A stretch of 64,000 nucleotides of DNA from an uncultured delta proteobacterium (GTDB lineage: Bacteria; Myxococcota_A; Polyangia; Polyangiales; Polyangiaceae), in assembly GCA_963782055.1 (NCBI GenBank), contig CAWAIF010000003.1:6496001-6560000 (forward strand), written 5' to 3'. The notes below the pieces were generated by a model that was not told the origin of the DNA, made no database searches, and was given only the letters and a program-made list of their open reading frames with translations. Shown piece after piece: positions 10,142-19,280 of this stretch (position 1 is the stretch's first letter; the number at the start of each line of letters is the position of its first letter). Both the position numbers and the translations under genes were made by a program.

Positions 10142-10366
10142 TCACTGGCACTTGCCGCCGCTGCAGTGGCCGCCGTTGCACTCGCTGTCGAAGTTGCACG
10201 AGCCGCCCGGGGCGTCGGAGCAGGTGCCGCCATGGCACTTGGCGTTGCCGCGACAGTCGCTGTCGAAGTTGCACTTGCCGTACGGGTCCGCGCTCGCGCG
10301 CGGGGGCGTGACGGAGAGGAGGGCGAAGATGCCGAGGCCGGCGAAGAGGATGACGAGTTTGCGCAT
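10142..10366 (-). CDS. Small secreted Cys-rich peptide (74 aa) with two CNFDS[DE]C repeats
   Basis: GGGAG RBS, signal peptide ending ASA, 8 Cys in two 4-Cys repeats. Confidence 0.8.
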   Translation of the reverse strand: MRKLVILFAGLGIFALLSVTPPRASADPYGKCNFDSDCRGNAKCHGGTCSDAPGGSCNFDSECNGGHCSGGKCQ

Positions 10367-10472: not shown

Positions 10473-10493
10473 GGTCGGGGAGGCGGGATTTGA
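10473..10493. repeat. att site, distal copy (displaced tRNA-Pro 3' fragment)
   Basis: GGTCGGGGAGGCGGGATTTGA identical to 19205-19225. Confidence 0.95.
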
Positions 10494-10607
10494 CACCCCC
10501 CTCTCCCGACCAGGCGGCCACACACGCGCGGCGGCTGTTTCTCGTGGGGTTCGCGGTCGGGGGTGTGACGAGGTGGGACGGGATGCACCAGGAAAGCACG
10601 TCGCGTT

Positions 10608-10627
10608 TGGTAACGGGGTGGAAACGG
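10608..10627 (+). repeat. Putative integrase arm-type site pair (distal end)
   Basis: TGGTAACGGGGTGGAAACGG matches 19132-19151 at 18/20. Confidence 0.7.
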
Positions 10628-10649
10628 GGCGGCACCCCGAGGAGGTTGG

Positions 10650-12191
10650 TCAGAACGAGAACCGCGCCGCGACCAGCCTCGACGCGTTTTGCACCGGATC
10701 CACCGTGACCCAGACCGGGAAGAAGGAGCCCGGCCGCGTGCAGCTCTGCGCTATCGGGGGAGGCACCGTGGCCACCGTCGCCTCGTGCTCGAGCAGCAGG
10801 CCACCGTCCGGGGCGAAGTCGTCGGGCAGGATCACAGGAGCCTTGATCGGCAGCCACGCTTCGTTGGCAGAGCGAGGCGCCACGTTGCCCTTGATCGCGG
10901 CGTGGAAATCCGTCGGAGAGACGCCCTCGTAGTAGAGCACGCTGACCCGGTTCAGGCCGTCTGCGGCGAGCGTTGGGAACATCGCGGCGAAGGGGGCCGA
11001 GACGAAGGGCTTCGCACAGCTACTCAGGGGTGCAGTCCAGCTCGCGGTGGGACCGCCGTCGACGTTGGACGTGGGCGAGCGAAGGCAGTACTCGCTCCAG
11101 GTGCGCCGCTCGACGTCGAGGGCGAGCCCGGACGCGGTGCTCATGAAGACGCGGACGGTCTGCTGGCTGTCGTTGATCGCCGCGTAGTAGGTGCCGTCAG
11201 GGGTGCGGAGAAAATCGAAGGCGCGCAAACCGTTCTGGATGTGCGCGGGTCCTGGCGCCTGCCGCAGGCACGATTGAAACTTTGTCGTCGTGTAGATCAC
11301 GGAGTGATCCGTCCAGTCGATGCCCTGGTTGAACGAGGTCACGGTCCCCCAGGACACCTTCAGCGGGGCCTTGCTCGGACAGGCGTGGAGGGCGTCGCTG
11401 TTCGAATATGCCACGGTGAGGGCACCGTCGCCCGCCTGCACGCGCAGCCCGCCTTGGCCGAGGTTGATGTCGTCATGCTCTCTGTCCATGTTCTCGATGG
11501 TCCTCGAGCCATCGAGGAATGTCAGCGTGCCGTCCTTCACCATCGCACGCCTGACGCAGCCTCCGTAGGAGCTCGCTCCCTTGTGGCGCCACGCGAACCA
11601 CGCCGTCGGGGGTGCCGTCGTGTAGTCGAAGGTGACGTCCGGAAGGTCTTCGTCCCCCGGATCGCACTCGCCGCCCGGCGCGTTGACCTGGAATGCCTGG
11701 TCGAAGGACACGCCATGATTGGTCGACAGGAGGGCGACCACGAGCCCTCCGGTGCCATGGCCGGTGTCGTTCGCGAGCGTGACGTAGACGACGCCGCCAC
11801 GCCCGTCGGTGGAGAGGGCTCCCTTGCCCACCCAGCCCGTCTGCCCGGCGATCATGGGGACGGGGTTTGGGTTGTTGCAGCCCGCCGCGGGGATGGCGGC
11901 GTTACAGACGGTCCAGAACGCGCCACTGGCATTGGCGTAGGCCCAGCCGACGCGCGCGTGGGTACCGCCGGCCCAGTCGGTGAAGCTGACGACGAGGAAC
12001 TCGCCGGTGAAGACGGCGGAGGGGTTGTTGGCGTTGACCGTGATCGTGTGAGGCGCCCCGGCGTCGAGCGCCTGGGAGGTCGTGTTCACCTTCTCGCCGC
12101 CGCTGCGCGAGCACGCGGCGCCGAGGGCACCTGCAGCGCCGAGCGCCGCGATGGCTCCGAGGGCAAAGATTCGTGCCGCGACGGTGTTCAT
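10650..12191 (-). CDS. Lipoprotein with Asp-box/BNR-like repeats (sialidase-like beta-propeller)
   Basis: GGAGG RBS; signal peptide with lipobox GAAC; STNHGVSF and SFNQGIDW Asp-box-like motifs; paralogue of 12841-14161. Confidence 0.72.
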   Translation of the reverse strand: MNTVAARIFALGAIAALGAAGALGAACSRSGGEKVNTTSQALDAGAPHTITVNANNPSAVFTGEFLVVSFTDWAGGTHARVGWAYANASGAFWTVCNAAIPAAGCNNPNPVPMIAGQTGWVGKGALSTDGRGGVVYVTLANDTGHGTGGLVVALLSTNHGVSFDQAFQVNAPGGECDPGDEDLPDVTFDYTTAPPTAWFAWRHKGASSYGGCVRRAMVKDGTLTFLDGSRTIENMDREHDDINLGQGGLRVQAGDGALTVAYSNSDALHACPSKAPLKVSWGTVTSFNQGIDWTDHSVIYTTTKFQSCLRQAPGPAHIQNGLRAFDFLRTPDGTYYAAINDSQQTVRVFMSTASGLALDVERRTWSEYCLRSPTSNVDGGPTASWTAPLSSCAKPFVSAPFAAMFPTLAADGLNRVSVLYYEGVSPTDFHAAIKGNVAPRSANEAWLPIKAPVILPDDFAPDGGLLLEHEATVATVPPPIAQSCTRPGSFFPVWVTVDPVQNASRLVAARFSF

Positions 12192-12217
12192 GGATCCCCT
12201 CCAGGTTAGGCGGCGCC

Positions 12218-12844
12218 TCATGGAGACACCGGCGTGCATGGGGGCTCGCAGGAAGTGGTGCTGCCCCGCGTGACACACAGCGTCGGTCCGCCGAGCGAAC
12301 AGTGATCGTCGCACGTGAGATCCATCACGCATCCGGCCACGTCAGGTCCAAGCGTGCAGCCGCCGTCATCTCCGACGCGTTCGTAGTTGCAGACAGCCGC
12401 GCAACGGACCGGCACCGACGCGTCGCCGAGGACGAACTGCTGGAAGAAGGCCTTGCAGAACGCGTCGCCCGACGGGCCGGGATGACAGGTCACGTGGAGG
12501 CGTTGCGCGGGATCCGTCGGATCACCTGTGTTGGTCGGGACCCGAGCGCTGCACGGAGCCCCCCCGCAATCCGAGCGTAGCGGAAGACCCGGCGGTACGC
12601 GCTGCGCTGCCCAGTCCTGGCACCCGTTCGGATCGCAGTCGCCACCGGGCTGCAGTAGGTTGAAGCTCGCCGGGGCGTAGCCGTTGCAAGCGCTGCCGGG
12701 CGAGAAGATGGGTTTGCCATCCTTGCCGTAGAATGTGCCGTCGGGAGCGAGCGTCCCGTCGTCCTGCGAGAGATCGGCCACCTTGCCGCCGCACACCGCC
12801 GCGAGGAGCGGCAGGACCAGAAGCACGGCCACCCGCCGCCTCAC
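12218..12844 (-). CDS. Cys-rich putative lipoprotein
   Basis: GTG overlapping the upstream TGA (GTGA); RRR-hydrophobic-LAAVC leader; many Cys. Confidence 0.65.
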   Translation of the reverse strand: MRRRVAVLLVLPLLAAVCGGKVADLSQDDGTLAPDGTFYGKDGKPIFSPGSACNGYAPASFNLLQPGGDCDPNGCQDWAAQRVPPGLPLRSDCGGAPCSARVPTNTGDPTDPAQRLHVTCHPGPSGDAFCKAFFQQFVLGDASVPVRCAAVCNYERVGDDGGCTLGPDVAGCVMDLTCDDHCSLGGPTLCVTRGSTTSCEPPCTPVSP

Positions 12845-14161
12845 GGCGTGACCTCGGTCGTCTGCAAGGTCGGGTTGCCCGCGTTGTCGCTGGGGTTGTC
12901 CAGGAACGTCCAGACGGGGAAGAAGGTTCCCGCGGCCCCGCACGCAGGGGCGCCGGTGCCCCCTCGTACTGTCATCGCCTCATAATCGCCCAGCACGCGG
13001 TACTTCGCCCATGGCCCAAGGTTCTCATCGTTCGGCGTGAAGTCGGCCGTGAGCATCGCCGTGTCCCAGGTGCTCGTCGGGCTGCGAGGCCAGACGTTCG
13101 ACCAGAAGCGTACATGGAACTTGAGGTCCGTAGGATTGGTGGAAAAGGCGGATCGAGCTCTTGTCGCTCTGCGCCGCGACGTAGAGTGTGCCTTCCGACG
13201 CGCGCACCACGTCGAAGATGCGGTTGCGGTCTTCCACCGTGCCCGCTGCCACGCACGAGTGCCAGTCGGTCGTCTTGAAGAGTCGCGTATGCTGGAACCA
13301 CGTCTCCCCGTCGTCGATGGACGTGACCGACTCGATGGCGACGCTGTCGGTGTTGTTGGTCGGGCACTTGATGACCTTGTTGTTCGCGTACAGCACCGTG
13401 ACCGCTCCGTCCCCTGCGACGACGCGCATACCGCCCTGCCCGTTGAACGCCACCTCCGTGCTCATGTGGTCCACGGATCTGCTGGTATCCAGCCAGTGGA
13501 TCGCGTCGTCGTTGCCGACGTAGCCTCGACGGACACAACCTCCGTACGCGTTGGGCCCGAAGTGGCGCCAAACGACCCAAAGCGTCGGTGGCGACGTGGT
13601 GTAGTCGAAGGTGGCTCCCGGCTGGTCCTGCACGCTGTCGCCGCAAACCCCGTCGTTCACCTGGGTGAGGCTCTGCGGCAAGAAGGTCTGTCCGCTGTCG
13701 TTCGACACCAGTGCGACGACGCGCCTGCCGCCCTTCGTCCCTGACGTGCCATCGTCGGTGAGCGTGACGAAGACCACGTGGCTACCCCTGGGCAGGTCCG
13801 TGCGGTGATCGGAGACGACCGTCGTGTCGCCGATGAAGCTCCAACCGGCGCCCGCGTCGACACCGGCGTCCGTACCGTTGCACGACGTACTCCCCAGGCT
13901 GCAGGGCGTCCATGTCTGGCCGCCATTCGGCGACCATGCCCACTGGGTGCTGTTGGACGATGTGCAGAGGATCTCGCGGCCCGCGGACGGTGGCGACCAG
14001 CAGCTCGATGGCTCCTGGGTGCCACCTGAGATCGTGACGACGGTGCCGGCCTCGAGGGCTTCGGAGATGGTGCCGGTGACCTCCGTCTCCGGCGAACTCG
14101 ACGCGCAGTGCACGGCCCACACAGTGAGCGGCACGACAGCGAGAAACCGAATGACCCTCAT
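12841..14161 (-). pseudogene. Asp-box beta-propeller exported protein with internal deletion and frameshift near 13140
   Basis: SPNGGQTW, SNDSGQTF, SIDDGETW; homology to the 10650-12191 protein resumes in another frame (NVWPRS...DFTPND...GTFFPVW). Confidence 0.75.
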
Positions 14162-14309
14162 CGCGCCCTCCCTGCTTCCCACCAAACGGTACCACCGAGG
14201 CACTTGCGGATGGACCTCTTCGCTCACGCCCCCACCAACTCGTGCGCGCGTGTGCCGCAGTGTGGGCGTTCGCAGCGCGGGCAACGCTCACGCCCGCCAC
14301 TTCGCTCGT

Positions 14310-14621
14310 TCAGATCTTCCTTCGCCCCAGCGGCTTGTTGCGCCCGCTGGATGGCTCGCCATGAATCGGTCGTCCAGGTCGACGGGGCGCGCGTGAACGC
14401 GGTGCCTCGAAGAGCACGCGCAGCGGGACCCCCAGAGCATTCGCAACGGTCAGCGCCGTCCGGATCGTGATCGCCCGGCGGCCATTCTCTATCGCCTGAT
14501 AGTCCTTCTCCGGCATTCCTACTGCAACGGCCGCCTCGGCCTGTGTCCAGCCGCGGGCTCGGCGCAGCTCGGCAACCTTGCGGCCCAAGTCGTCCAACAC
14601 GGCCGTGAGGTTCTGGCGCAC
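14310..14621 (-). CDS. XRE-family HTH regulator
   Basis: LGRKVAELRRARGWTQAEAA...YQAIENGRRAITIRT...ANALGVPLRVLF. Confidence 0.88.
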   Translation of the reverse strand: MRQNLTAVLDDLGRKVAELRRARGWTQAEAAVAVGMPEKDYQAIENGRRAITIRTALTVANALGVPLRVLFEAPRSRAPRRPGRPIHGEPSSGRNKPLGRRKI

Positions 14622-14651
14622 CCGGCGACGATTGCGGTTGCGTCAAGGCAT

Positions 14652-14677
14652 AAACACCTGTGATACTTCTGGTGTTT
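14652..14677. promoter_or_regulatory. Inverted repeat between divergent XRE and lipoprotein genes (candidate operator)
   Basis: AAACACC-N12-GGTGTTT in an AT-rich gap. Confidence 0.5.
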
Positions 14678-14692
14678 CTTCGGGAGGTGCCC

Positions 14693-15370
14693 ATGGTTCC
14701 GCGAACGCTGATGGTTGCTGGCCTTCTTGCCGCTGCGTGCTCCTGCTCAAGCACGGTCACCCAGCCGCCCGACTCCACCGCCGACGCGGGCGCGGACGCG
14801 GAGGCGCCCGCCGACGCGGGCGGGGACAGCGCGGCGAGTTGCAGCGCGGCCAACTGCACGGGCTGCTGCTTGAACGGCGCGTGCCAGGCGGGGACAACCT
14901 CGGCGGGCTGCGGGAAGAACGGCGCGGCGTGCGTGGTGTGCTCCTCCCCGCAGGTGTGCGGCGCGGACCAGACGTGCGGGATCGATCCCGCGAGCACGTG
15001 GACGATCCAGCCGGTGAGCGCGAGCATCAGCACCACGAACCAGGGGGCCGACTGGGACCTCGGCGGCGGAGCGCCGGACCCGTACGTGAGTCTGTGGTGC
15101 CCGCCCTCGGCCTCCACGCCGGTCAGCACGCCGGCGGTGCAGGACTCCTTCTCGCCCACGTGGTCCACCGGCGGGTGCTCGATGAAGGCGAAGGATCTCC
15201 TCTCCGTGGGCTTCGCGCTCGCCGTCTTCGATCAGGACGTCTCGTTCGACGACACCATCGCCTCGAAGGGCACGATCGTCCCGAAGGAGCAGGAGTTGAT
15301 CCAGGGCAGCAAGAACCTGACGAACAACGTCACCCTCCTGAGCCTGAAGGTGACCTTCACGATGCAGTAG
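14693..15370 (+). CDS. Lipoprotein with Cys-rich region and C-terminal C2-like domain
   Basis: GGAGGT RBS; lipobox AAAC; CTGCC...CG...CVVC; PDPYV...QDSFSPTW...VFDQDVSFDD. Confidence 0.75.
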   Translation: MVPRTLMVAGLLAAACSCSSTVTQPPDSTADAGADAEAPADAGGDSAASCSAANCTGCCLNGACQAGTTSAGCGKNGAACVVCSSPQVCGADQTCGIDPASTWTIQPVSASISTTNQGADWDLGGGAPDPYVSLWCPPSASTPVSTPAVQDSFSPTWSTGGCSMKAKDLLSVGFALAVFDQDVSFDDTIASKGTIVPKEQELIQGSKNLTNNVTLLSLKVTFTMQ

Positions 15371-15401
15371 CCCCGGCGCCGCCTTGCCGTGGGCGCGGGC
15401 G

Positions 15402-15800
15402 CTAGCGCATCGCCTCTACCTCGATCACCACGTCGGCCTCGTGGCGCAGCTCCTCCGAGCCGCGGAGGTCCCCGCTCTTGTTGATCTGGGACGTGGCGAG
15501 GAGCAGCGACAGCGACGGAAGCGTGAGGAGCAGGTGCCGGACCTCGCGCGGCTCGAACATGCTGCGCTGGAGGCTGTCCACGCCCAGCGCGGTGACCTTG
15601 CGCTCCCGCACGATCGTAGCGACCTGGTCCACGCTCGCGTGCGAGGCCACGAGCAAGTCCTCGCGCTTGATCGCGAGCCGAGCGAGGCGGGCAGCCAAAC
15701 TCGGGCCGCCCGGCTCTTCGATGCTCAACAGGAGGGCGGTCTCCTGCATCGCGTCCAGCGCGCGCGCGCGGGCGTGTAGCCGTCGTCCGAAATCGCCGCT
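15402..15800 (-). pseudogene. Fragment of RecA-superfamily (RadA/DnaB-like) ATPase
   Basis: Walker B ALGVDSLQ and SQINKSGDLRGSEELRHEADVVIEV; no Walker A before the in-frame upstream stop. Confidence 0.6.
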
Positions 15801-16051
15801 GAGTTAATCGATCGGTCTGTGGCGCCACCGACCGTCACGGCCCCGGGTCGCGCTCGCGCACCTCGACGACATGCTCGTCGTGCAGCGCGTCGGCGGGGGC
15901 GAACGGATCCGCACCCAGCCCCCGTCGATGGTGAGGAGGGCTCACGACGGTGGACGACGACTGAAGGGTAGGCGTTCACGTCGGCGCACCGCATCGCACA
16001 ACCTCACCTCTACGTGCGCCTCCATGGGCCGGACCATTACCCCGGATCCTC

Positions 16052-17576
16052 GTGACGGCGGAGACCGCCCGCGTCGTCGAGGAGTCGATCACGCACTTGG
16101 CGGCGGCCGGTCCGAACGTCTACACCCGCGGCGGCGCGCTTGTCCGGATCGTTTGTGACCAGACGCCGGGTGTCATCACCCGCGAATCCAATGCACCAAC
16201 CATCCGGCTGCACACACCAGCCACGCTGGACGTCGAGCTCTCGCGCAGCGTCGTCTACAAACGCGAGCGTCGCGGTCAGAGCGGCGGCGCACAACTCGAG
16301 ACGTGCTCGCCGCCGATGCGCGTGCTCGCCGCGCTGCTGGAGACCGGCGAATGGCCGGGGCTGCGATGCCTCGACCGGGTAGCCAGCGCCCCGATCCTTC
16401 GCGCTGACGGAACCGTCGCCTGCAGGCCGGGCTACGATGCGCGGAGCCGCACCGTCGTGGCCTACGAGGGCGGCTTCGATGTCTCGGAGCCGCTGCAGCG
16501 CAGCGTCGCAGTCCTTGCATGCGACGACCTGCTGGACGTTGTTCGCGACTTTCCGTGGCAGCAGAAGGCCGATCAGTCCGCGTGGCTGGCGCTCGTGCTT
16601 ACCCTGCTCGCGCGCAGCGCCATCTCCGGGCCGGTTCCGATGTGGACCGTGACAGCCAACGTCCGTGGTGCGGGCAAGTCGCGGCTGGTTGACGTCGCAG
16701 CCATCATCGCAACCGGCCGCACCGCAGCACGGGCGACGCAGCCTGCCGACGATGCCGAGGCCGGCAAGGTCATCACGTCCATCGTGATGGCGGGCGACGA
16801 GATCGTGTTGCTCGACAACGTGGACCGCGCGCTCGGCGGCGCCAAGCTCGACGCCCTCCTCACCGGCGAGCGCTGGAAGGACCGGCTTCTCGGGACCAAC
16901 ACCACGATCGATCTCCCGATCCGCACCGTCGTGTGCGCCACCGGCAACAACCTGGACTTTCGTGGCGACACGCTCCGCCGCGTCCTGCCGGTGCGCCTCG
17001 ACTCGCCGCTGGAGCGGCCGGAGGACCGTACCGACTTCATCCAGTCGGACCTCCTCGGGTACGTGCGCGGCCACCGCCTGGAGCTCGTCAGGGTCGCGCT
17101 GACGATGCTACGGGCGTGGTTCGTCGCCGGCCGGCCGCAAGTTGCGGATGTGCGCCGGTGGGGATCGTACGAGGCTTGGTCGGGGCTCGTCCCGCACGTC
17201 CTGGCGTGGGTCGGACTCCCTGACCCGCAGCTCACCCGCGAGGGGCTGGAAGCGGACGACCCGCGCATGCGCGCGCTCGGCGTGGTCATGGAGCACTGGC
17301 ACCGGCTGGAGCAGACATGCGGCAGCGTCTCGGGCATCACCATCCGCCAGGCGCTGGACAAGCTGTACCAGGACTGGTCGTCCTCGACGCGACGGCGAGT
17401 ACGACGAGCTGCGCGAGGCCCTGGAGATCCTTGCGCCGGGGCGCGCCGGCCAGCGTGTTTCCGCCACGGCGCTCGGCCACGTGTTTCGTCGCGCGCACCG
17501 CCGCGTCTTCGGTGGCCACCGCCTCGTGGATCTGGGCGCTGGCCACGCGAACGTGGCGCGCTGGGGGGTGCGGTGA
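16052..17576 (+). pseudogene. Primase-associated P-loop helicase/Rep protein, lacking primase domain, frameshifted near 17375-17395
   Basis: APILRADG...PGYD, Walker A GAGKS, Walker B VLLDNV, ATGNN, DTLRR; plausible C-terminus continues in the +1 frame to TGA 17576; frame open upstream only to 15965. Confidence 0.72.
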
Positions 17577-17582
17577 TGCTCC

Positions 17583-17698
17583 GCGAGGGATGCGAGGGAT
17601 GCGAGGGACGCGTCCAGCTCCGTGCGCGCGAGAGGGGAGAGTTCCCAATCCTGCTAACGCGACAACAACCCTCGCATGACTCGCATGACTCGCATCCC
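17583..17698. repeat. Convergent 9-bp iteron arrays (candidate origin of replication)
   Basis: GCGAGGGAT x2 plus GCGAGGGAC at 17583-17609; inverted copies ACCCTCGC, ATGACTCGC x2, ATCCC at 17668-17698. Confidence 0.7.
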
Positions 17699-17729
17699 GG
17701 CCTCGACGACCGGAAGAAGGAGACCGACC

Positions 17730-17990
17730 ATGGCTGACTCCGCGACCACGCTGCCCCTCGCCCACCGCGCCCGACGGCCTCCGAAGCTTCCGGCGCCGAC
17801 CGCCGGCGCCGTCCCGACCTTGCAGACAATCGAGGAGGCTGCACGCACGCTGCGCGTCACGACGACTGCCCTCCGGGCCCGCTGCCGGCGCGCGGCGGCG
17901 ACCCCCGACCCCCAGGGCAACATCGTCCTCGCCCCCGGCGTCTTCGCCGTGAAGCTGGGACGGCACTGGCGCGTGCGCTTCGCGACGTGA
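17730..17990 (+). CDS. Excisionase-like winged-HTH protein
   Basis: AAGGAG RBS; TIEEAARTLRVTTTALRAR...KLGRHWRV; directly upstream of the integrase. Confidence 0.7.
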   Translation: MADSATTLPLAHRARRPPKLPAPTAGAVPTLQTIEEAARTLRVTTTALRARCRRAAATPDPQGNIVLAPGVFAVKLGRHWRVRFAT

Positions 17991-18060
17991 CGTGACCTGA
18001 CGACGCGCCACCGCGCGTGCCAGCGTGCTGTGCGTGTGCGTGGTCGCCATGGAGGTTCCC

Positions 18061-19122
18061 ATGGCCAAACGCAACAACGGAGACGTCCGCCGCATCAAGC
18101 GCAACGGGCGCGTCCACTGGGTCGTTGATTTCTTCTGGTTCGATCGATCGGGGCGCCAGCACCGCTACCGACGCGACGCGCGCGTGCAGACGCGCGATGG
18201 CGCGCTGGTGGAGGCCCGGGCGCTTCAAGAGCGCGCGTGGCGCGAGGGGACGCTCTCCGAGCGGCCCGCCGTGCCCACGGTGCGCGAGTTCGTCGAGGGG
18301 CTGTTCCGCTCGACGCGCATGCCGACGTTCCGGCCGGCGACGCGCACGCGGTACGAAGCCCTGCTCAGGCAAGGGTTGCTCGCCCACTTCGGTGGCCTGC
18401 GGCTCGACGAGCTGGGCCCGCACAACGTCCACGCGTACGCCGCGAAGCTCGCGGAGCGTGGCGTGCAGGCGAAGGGGCCGGTGGTGCTCCTCCGCACCAT
18501 CGCGCGTGCGGCGCTGGACCTCGGGCTCATCGACGCGATGCCCACCATTCCTCGCGTGTGGAAGGACAGCCGCAAGCTGCCCGACGCTCCGCCGCGCGAG
18601 GAGGTGGAGCGCCTCATCGCGTCGGCGACGAAGTGGCTCCGCACCGCCATCGCCCTCGCCGCGTTCGCCGGGCTCCGCTCCGGCGAGGTGCGCGCCATCG
18701 AGGTGGGCGACGTCGACCTGGCCCCCGGGCGCATCGTGGTCCGGCACGCCATGTCGGATCGCGTGATCACGACGCCGAAGTCCGGGCACGAGCGCATCGT
18801 GCCCATCGCGCCGGCGCTGCGGCCCATCCTGGAGGACGCGCTGCGGGGCAAGCTCCCGAAGGCGAGGCTGCTGACCACGGCGCACGGGACGACGCCCCCG
18901 CGGCAGCACGTGCTCATACGGCTGAACGCGCTGGAGGATCGGCTGGGCATGAAGCGCTGGACGTTCCACCAGCTCCGGCACCACTTCTGCACCTCGCTGC
19001 TCCAGGGCGGCGCGCACCTCGAAACGGTACGCGTGCTGGCGGGCCACTCCTCGGTGACCATGACGCAACGCTACGTGCATGCGACCAGCGGCGAGCTGGA
19101 GCGCGCCATCGCGCGGATCTGA
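18061..19122 (+). CDS. int: Tyrosine recombinase/integrase
   Basis: R (GLRSGE), K (TPKSG), HxxR (FHQLRH), H (LAGHSS), Y (TQRYVH) all present; GGAGG RBS. Confidence 0.95.
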   Translation: MAKRNNGDVRRIKRNGRVHWVVDFFWFDRSGRQHRYRRDARVQTRDGALVEARALQERAWREGTLSERPAVPTVREFVEGLFRSTRMPTFRPATRTRYEALLRQGLLAHFGGLRLDELGPHNVHAYAAKLAERGVQAKGPVVLLRTIARAALDLGLIDAMPTIPRVWKDSRKLPDAPPREEVERLIASATKWLRTAIALAAFAGLRSGEVRAIEVGDVDLAPGRIVVRHAMSDRVITTPKSGHERIVPIAPALRPILEDALRGKLPKARLLTTAHGTTPPRQHVLIRLNALEDRLGMKRWTFHQLRHHFCTSLLQGGAHLETVRVLAGHSSVTMTQRYVHATSGELERAIARI

Positions 19123-19131
19123 CGCGGCGAC

Positions 19132-19151
19132 TGGTAACGAAGTGGAAACGG
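19132..19151 (+). repeat. Putative integrase arm-type site pair (tRNA end)
   Basis: TGGTAACGAAGTGGAAACGG, partner of 10608-10627. Confidence 0.7.
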
Positions 19152-19204
19152 CGTCCACCCCCGATCGCCAAATCCCAGAGAATCAAGCCGTTTTTGAGTA
19201 CTTC

Positions 19205-19225
19205 GGTCGGGGAGGCGGGATTTGA
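19205..19225. repeat. att site, tRNA-proximal copy
   Basis: Identical to 10473-10493; covers the T-arm and acceptor 3' strand. Confidence 0.95.
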
Positions 19226-19280
19226 ACCCGCGACGACGAGCACCCAAAGCTCGTGCACTACCGGACTGTGCGACTCCCCG
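19207..19280 (-). tRNA. tRNA-Pro(TGG), CCA not encoded
   Basis: CGGGGAG/CTCCCCG acceptor stem, anticodon loop TTTGGGT, GGTTCAAATCC T-arm. Confidence 0.95.

Follow-up and report, generated by a model that had tools for sequence, protein, structure and literature searches.

Positions 10473-19225 of the window (the whole 64,000-nucleotide stretch analysed here, from contig CAWAIF010000003.1 of an uncultured member of the Polyangiaceae) are occupied by a mobile element of ~8.7 kb inserted in a tRNA-Pro gene. Related elements share a module made up of a RadA-like ATPase, a zinc ribbon and membrane proteins; the window copy keeps a fragment of the ATPase only and is a former member of this family. 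The reading that we favour, with a probability of about 0.55, is that the element has lost most of a module that likely moves its intact relatives, and that the window copy can likely still excise but likely cannot spread alone. The parent family is apparently undescribed: no description of the module was found in open-access full text (a coverage that leaves out subscription papers and preprint supplements), and the words RadA, inovir and filamentous do not occur in the accessible part of 10.64898/2026.09.14.751636.

The source genome comprises 7.58 Mb in three contigs, has a G+C content of 71.6% and is 97% complete. An earlier note made from the DNA letters alone (the sequence-only reading) had reported perfect 21-bp attachment (att) repeats, and these were confirmed. 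The 3' end of tRNA-Pro(TGG) is repeated exactly at the element's distal end, the two copies are the only ones in the window, and the distance from core to core is 8732 bp. A 17-bp motif occurs exactly twice in the genome, once inside each element end, and is similar to a motif behind three of the five related integrases checked; by analogy with other tyrosine integrases, the pair probably represents the arm sites. A distance of 24 bp separates the end of the cargo A gene from the left arm-like site, so that the cargo falls within the excisable unit. G+C content is 67.7% in the cargo region, compared with 71.2% and 74.0% in the flanks. No empty site with both flanks was found, the flanking genes not being syntenic with tRNA-Pro in the relatives searched. 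Soil run X1, of low depth and represented by contigs only (6% of words), listed no attP or attB joint and no RNA holder, and is evidence neither way. The distal att core and the next 19 bases (10473-10512) constitute an almost perfect inverted repeat that encloses the T-loop sequence (as DNA, -13.6 kcal/mol). Just outside the distal att, at 10142-10366, the minus strand encodes a small, secreted protein with Cys-rich repeats (EB module, E 8e-6).

The ATPase fragment was missed by the sequence-only reading. The zinc finger, Walker A and K-x-R motifs are gone from it, and the fragment is therefore dead. In the ATPase tree it is sister to the ATPase of genome G516 with 98/99 support (the integrase and ATPase trees, of 14 and 19 rows, are midpoint-rooted), and whole ATPase copies are found at two other places in the source genome. 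The intact protein (~240 aa) consists of a zinc finger and a RecA domain and has no Lon-like domain. It matches residues 7-238 only of RadA/Sms (E 3e-13), its top Foldseek match is RadA, and its TIGR00416 score is 22 against a cut-off of 403. Across 18 ATPase sequences, four cysteines, Walker A and K-x-R do not vary. With RadA/Sms, whose domain layout and KNRFG motif are described in PMC11612176, the ATPase shares the C4 zinc finger, the RecA-type domain and K-x-R at the KNRFG position; in contrast to RadA/Sms, it lacks the Lon-like domain, is ~230-250 aa long and always has a separate zinc-ribbon gene behind it. Full-length RadA is separately encoded by the host. Of 301 genomes of the order, 7 have the ATPase, as do 10 of 351 genomes of the family (both counts include the source genome) and four metagenome loci. 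Protein searches gave 111 clusters at E<=1e-30, mostly of 220-260 aa, and none of 10 sampled clusters had an informative name. Short-pattern scans of viral_contigs, which are of low sensitivity, showed no relative of the ATPase or the helicase. A complex prediction for the ATPase and the zinc ribbon returned a score of 0.00, which is no answer and is not taken as evidence.

The composition of the intact module was examined at 22 loci, leaving out the near-duplicate L053. A C4 zinc-ribbon gene lies directly behind the ATPase at all 20 loci with a whole or merely frameshifted ATPase, 11 of which were used to train the zinc-ribbon profile, the other nine being outside the training set. The zinc ribbon is absent only at the two remnant loci, the window and G002:C76. 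A search of 301 genomes of the phylum with the zinc ribbon added two loci from other families, and at each of them the ATPase precedes the zinc ribbon. Small ORFs (open reading frames) with a hydrophobic C-terminus lie behind the zinc ribbon at 13/20 loci, one of them doubtful. Nine of the 20 loci encode an integrase within a few kb of the module; the remaining 11 include nine contigs no longer than 10 kb. The module is bracketed by exact copies of a tRNA end in G282 (9.7 kb), G516 (14.9 kb) and G364 (10.7 kb), and likewise by an exact att pair in a tRNA-Gly element of the source genome (~23 kb with insertion sequence (IS) insertions); no such pair was found in the DNA fetched for G096 C614, G002 C161, G312, G004 (two loci) or G001. 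The replication genes of family members are of the D5, AAA_25, DnaB-N, VapE and rolling-circle Rep types, one relative has a NikA-like ribbon-helix-helix protein and one an HUH Rep, and integrases of two clades accompany the module. In the integrase tree, those of G001, L024 and the module-bearing tRNA-Pro element of G096 share a clade with the window integrase. The family ranges from 4 to 23 kb; its ATPase/zinc-ribbon/membrane-protein module stays the same, whereas the integrase clade, the replication gene and the cargo differ between elements.

A tRNA-integrating family with variable cargo, as the sequence-only reading had proposed, exists; a dedicated shuttle for surface lipoproteins is only weakly supported, since relatives often carry cargo of defence type and, in the source genome, the surface cassette is mostly located outside such elements. 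Genes carried by relatives include MmeI, AbiJ/DUF7014, NYN, a restriction-nuclease fold, a papain-type protease and a kinase. The helicase-ori-xis-int order, suggested to be distinctive, is not so: rep-xis-int toward the tRNA is the ordinary layout of the family. The expectation that the same integrase would be found at tRNA-Pro with different cargo was borne out in G001, where an integrase of 68% identity occupies the same tRNA-Pro. That island otherwise holds ~40 kb of low-GC genes, presumably a restriction/DISARM-type cluster as judged by eye. The window cargo was found at none of 11 tRNA-Pro loci of relatives (two of the stretches being under 4 kb), so that the outcome named as fatal to the idea, cargo at this locus without the integrase, was not encountered. 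The other such outcome, a deletion remnant of a prophage or integrative and conjugative element, is half right: the window copy is a remnant, of a parent that is neither of the two and is a 4-23 kb element. In G002 a second tRNA-Pro att core copy lies 96 bp from the tRNA (L013:12749 and 12845) and is the scar of an earlier insertion.

Table 1 Features of the tRNA-Pro element in the window
Feature	Position	Strand	Basis or remark
Distal att core	10473..10493	.	21 bp, copy of tRNA-Pro 3' end
Arm-like site, copy 1 (putative integrase arm site)	10609..10625	+	motif count in genome
Cargo A, 513 aa, predicted lipoprotein, Asp-box beta-propeller, intact	10650..12191	-	model, Foldseek, motif checks
Cargo B, 208 aa, Cys-rich predicted lipoprotein	12218..12844	-	start overlaps end of cargo C
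Cargo C, broken paralog of A	12841..14161	-	~75-84 codons missing, frameshift near 13135
XRE-family regulator	14310..14621	-	HTH_3 E 9e-13
Cargo D, 225 aa, Cys-rich predicted lipoprotein	14693..15370	+	weak C2-like C-terminal domain (PF00168 E 0.0016, below cut-off)
Dead remnant of RadA-like ATPase	15402..15767	-	profile 94-213 of ~240
Stand-alone helicase of primase-helicase type	16052..17576	+	motifs like those of superfamily 3, by eye; frame break near 17375
Likely replication origin, 3+3 facing 9-bp repeats	17583..17697	.	three repeats facing three inverted copies, behind helicase stop codon
Xis-like helix-turn-helix gene	17730..17990	+	weak, sub-threshold helix-turn-helix matches only
Tyrosine integrase, 353 aa	18061..19122	+	PF00589 E 9e-25; catalytic motifs present
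Arm-like site, copy 2	19133..19149	+	similar motif after three related integrases
tRNA-Pro(TGG), intact	19205..19280	-	19205-19225 = proximal att core

The remaining core genes largely agree with what had been noted from the letters (Table 1). The integrase has all catalytic residues (R206, K240, H303, R306, H329 and Y338), the Xis-like gene is 67% identical to the gene preceding the related integrase in G001, and the XRE regulator was recovered. No capsid, terminase, relaxase or type IV secretion system (T4SS) gene was matched among the 12 window open reading frames (ORFs) scanned; an oriT was not searched for. The primase-type helicase stands as a helicase, with a broken frame; it matches the helicase half only of primase-helicase profiles and has no primase domain. 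All 120 longer helicase homologs align only from ~15990. Loss of the primase by deletion was considered and rejected, because the nearest homologs (62-67% identity, 534-545 aa) are stand-alone and the absence of a primase is accordingly native. Around the frame break, 42 homolog alignments go on in the other frame, and a record in soil run X1 that is 97% identical to the helicase has no break at that place; IS copies show at most seven gaps in 65 kb (41 alignments, four of them self). The iteron array also held up. A strict exact 3+3 scan missed it since the copies differ, and a looser 2+2 rule was used instead, which 2 of 3000 random genome windows pass (3+3 rule: 0/3000). The facing geometry, with other sequences, lies behind the helicase in 7/19 related loci, or 5/17 without two duplicates (one of the five doubtful); two more loci were too short. 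These counts support an origin with element-specific iterons. No informative match to the gap at 15768-16040 was found in the fetched loci.

As the sequence-only reading stated, about half of the element is cargo: four genes with lipoprotein-type N-termini, as judged by eye from the N-terminal sequence, cover ~4.2 of 8.7 kb. One of the four, cargo C, is broken, and a one-base error does not explain it because 75-84 codons are missing at the frameshift. Cargo A has only seven homologs in the protein search, and its propeller family was found in 3/201 genomes of the family, all of one genus. The predicted model of cargo A, built with 12 sequences, is all-beta (predicted local distance difference test (pLDDT) 77, predicted template-modelling score (pTM) 0.83). 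Its best Foldseek matches are propellers of the rhamnose-glucuronate lyase/BT3686 type, lectins and sialidases (E 4e-10, template-modelling score 0.43-0.48), with which it shares Asp-boxes and fold at only 11-14% identity, and an Atlas search gave Asp-box sialidase-like clusters (0.92). The F/Y-R-I-P motif, which we take to be the arginine-triad motif of GH33 sialidases, occurs in none of 12 cargo A family sequences, and a PDB sequence search with the propeller alignment gave nothing below E 0.2. Residues H203, R202, D182 and R323 of cargo A are conserved. A glycan-binding or glycan-cutting role is plausible, though unproven, from the modelled fold. Among the roles put forward by the sequence-only reading (receptor masking, kin recognition or prey glycan attack), support extends no further than a propeller fold of the glycan-enzyme or lectin type. 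Four of the nine B-type genes of the source genome lie 6-74 bp behind an A gene; the other five are orphan or tandem. A toxin-immunity reading of the A/B pair is suggestive, and the orphan and tandem B copies resemble orphan immunity arrays; no toxin domain was found and it is left as a lead. Cargo D has a weak homolog near the ATPase in G455.

Under the favoured reading, in which a partly decayed copy has lost a transfer module, the integrase and Xis would cut out a circle, and the helicase would bind the facing repeats and replicate the circle using a primase of the host. In intact members, DNA would be translocated by a ring ATPase that derives from RadA and has no Lon domain, at a site in the membrane which the small anchored proteins form, much as Tra and Spd proteins do in actinomycete elements. 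The surface cassette would have ridden in as cargo or have been trapped afterwards, and would likely act on or bind surface glycans. In the window copy the module is lost, cargo C is broken and the helicase frame is interrupted. A transfer role for the module is inferred because it is the only part constant across integrase and replicon types, a pattern known from the actinomycete elements. Actinomycete integrative and conjugative elements (AICEs) have a co-oriented rep-xis-int layout toward the tRNA, with Tra/Spd proteins in place of a T4SS. The present family is alike in this layout, in its swappable replication genes, including a rolling-circle Rep, and in having one ATPase with small membrane proteins; it differs in that the AICE Tra is FtsK-type as against a RecA/RadA-type ATPase here, and in its diderm host.

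Several points weigh against this reading. No experiment and no read shows excision or transfer, and the function proposed for the module is drawn from gene content. The module products have no match to any characterised transfer protein in profile scans or the Atlas search, where the zinc ribbon gave only unnamed matches below 0.9. The count of small ORFs with a hydrophobic C-terminus has no shuffled control. In genome G006 a related integrase and an att pair occur without the module, so that elements lacking it may be viable. The stand-alone form of the helicase is native and no mark of decay, and its frame break may be a mutation or an assembly error. Finally, no ATPase remnant lies near 8 of the 10 propeller loci in the source genome.

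A bolder form of the same idea is doubtful in our view. It holds that small integrative elements of Myxococcota carry their own four-gene machine (a Lon-less RadA-derived motor, its zinc-ribbon partner and two membrane-anchored proteins), independent of capsid and T4SS, exchange their integrases and replication genes freely and spread surface lipoprotein cassettes that are lineage-specific, the window island being freshly stranded. Such a machine may be a cell-to-cell conduit or a membrane or filamentous particle. Inoviruses and filamentous phages have small C-terminally anchored proteins with basic tails, as the module does, and one family member has a G2P-like rolling-circle Rep; yet the ATPase is RadA-like and not of the Zot/pI type, and no PHROG coat protein was matched among the module proteins.

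It is also possible, if unlikely, that the cargo was never borne by the element, and that IS activity and duplication move the propeller and lipoprotein cassettes, which would have reached a dying element here in the same way as other plastic sites. The source genome has 10 propeller loci and the nine B-type genes, the cargo of relatives is often defence-type, and multi-copy DNA (in part the cassette's own duplicates) lies within 5 kb of 7/10 propeller loci compared with 21/100 random windows. Against this, the two propeller loci of the window are among the three without such repeats, and cargo A sits inside the att pair, hard against the left arm-like site. A second case of cargo beside a module remnant also argues against it: in G002, ~450 bp separate an A-B-A cargo array from an ATPase remnant with a frameshift. 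At that locus no tRNA or integrase was matched in 20 kb, and no ATPase remnant was found at the other three cargo loci fetched from G002 and G001. Rather less probable is a complete minimal cargo element resembling a tycheposon, moved passively by vesicles or generalised packaging, in which the lost module was an accessory, for instance an exclusion system or a factor that modulates RecA/RadA of the host. In the accessible text of 10.1101/2020.12.28.424599, an integrase, xis, helicase and origin suffice for tycheposons, and the window element has that type of set: a tRNA-targeting tyrosine recombinase, an excisionase, a replication module, cargo and no transfer genes. That text, as far as it was available, describes Prochlorococcus elements (a different host phylum) that integrate at tRNA 3' ends and share an exchangeable helicase/primase module, a lack of conjugation genes and many degenerated copies with the present family. 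It defines them by integrase clades and gene profiles, whereas the likeness here is one of general layout, and a RadA-like/zinc-ribbon/membrane module was not met in the description. The G006 and G001 elements lack an intact module, and the accessible part of PMC5512222 proposes, for the different context of polyvalent proteins in Bacteroidetes elements, that RadA-type domains handle incoming DNA. An accessory role fits poorly with the module alone being common to two integrase clades and five replication types, and with both module remnants lying beside cargo in decayed contexts.

The identity favoured by the sequence-only reading, a functional phage satellite such as a phage-inducible chromosomal island (PICI) or P4-like element hijacking a helper phage, is not supported, and we consider it very improbable. 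Size, tRNA site and the integrase-regulator-helicase core do fit. As given in the available part of PMC10085698, such satellites share a size near 10 kb, an integrase, a regulator and a replication gene with the element, and the three-gene set would rank at most in the least reliable PICI class. The integrase is of the kind required for P4-like elements, and for PICI regulators the XRE HTH_3 and the Xis-like helix-turn-helix are present, with no AlpA match. However, every hijacking hallmark listed there (TerS, a capsid modifier, Psu/Delta/Sid/Ash) and the primase are missing, and surface cargo is present instead. Psu, Delta, Sid and Ash had no match in the 12 window ORFs (Pfam/PHROGs; SatelliteFinder profiles were not run), of the P4-like alpha primase-helicase only the helicase part was found, and no small terminase or capsid morphogenesis gene was found in the window ORFs or the module proteins. 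Terminase_6N, TerL_ATPase and Phage_capsid were unmatched in the host genome, which is 97% complete, and the negative viral_contigs scans point the same way within their low sensitivity.

Other family loci showed further variation. A family element in a tRNA-Gly island array (L026, G000:C3:5306000-5328900) has a whole module, a D5 helicase split by an IS, and a cargo pair unlike that of the window, a large secreted protein (1409 aa, TSP3 match) with a lipoprotein (453 aa). A third whole module (L027, G000:C2:17713-19304) lies beside RCC1/Ig-repeat predicted surface proteins and an IS, with no integrase match within 20 kb. In G001, ~50 kb from the tRNA-Pro integrase, a frameshifted ATPase and a zinc ribbon adjoin an HNH-like ORF and a tRNA array in which 26 genes were called (L072:9100-16000, G001:C12). 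The G516 element (L073:5000-19990) has a Rep_1/G2P-like rolling-circle Rep and MmeI cargo, and its distal att lies inside the 3' end of the integrase ORF. Possibly the smallest member, ~3.7 kb between tRNA-Val and tRNA-Gln (L077:1080-4885, G004:C7), contains an XRE gene, the module, a Xis-like gene and an integrase; no replication gene was seen. A zinc-ribbon/coiled-coil protein is encoded in three related islands (L049:3192-4580, with a DUF2130 match, L075:17385-18842 and L012:3391-4872).

Gene movement among slow-growing soil myxobacteria without obvious conjugation systems is poorly known, and the family described here is a compact candidate for it, with a constant module of three to four genes on 4-23 kb elements that have clear att sites. 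Its naturally Lon-less RadA paralog would be a useful probe of the role of the Lon domain. The window island itself is a relic, and its value is as a pointer to the family and as a case of surface-protein cassettes inside an excisable unit.

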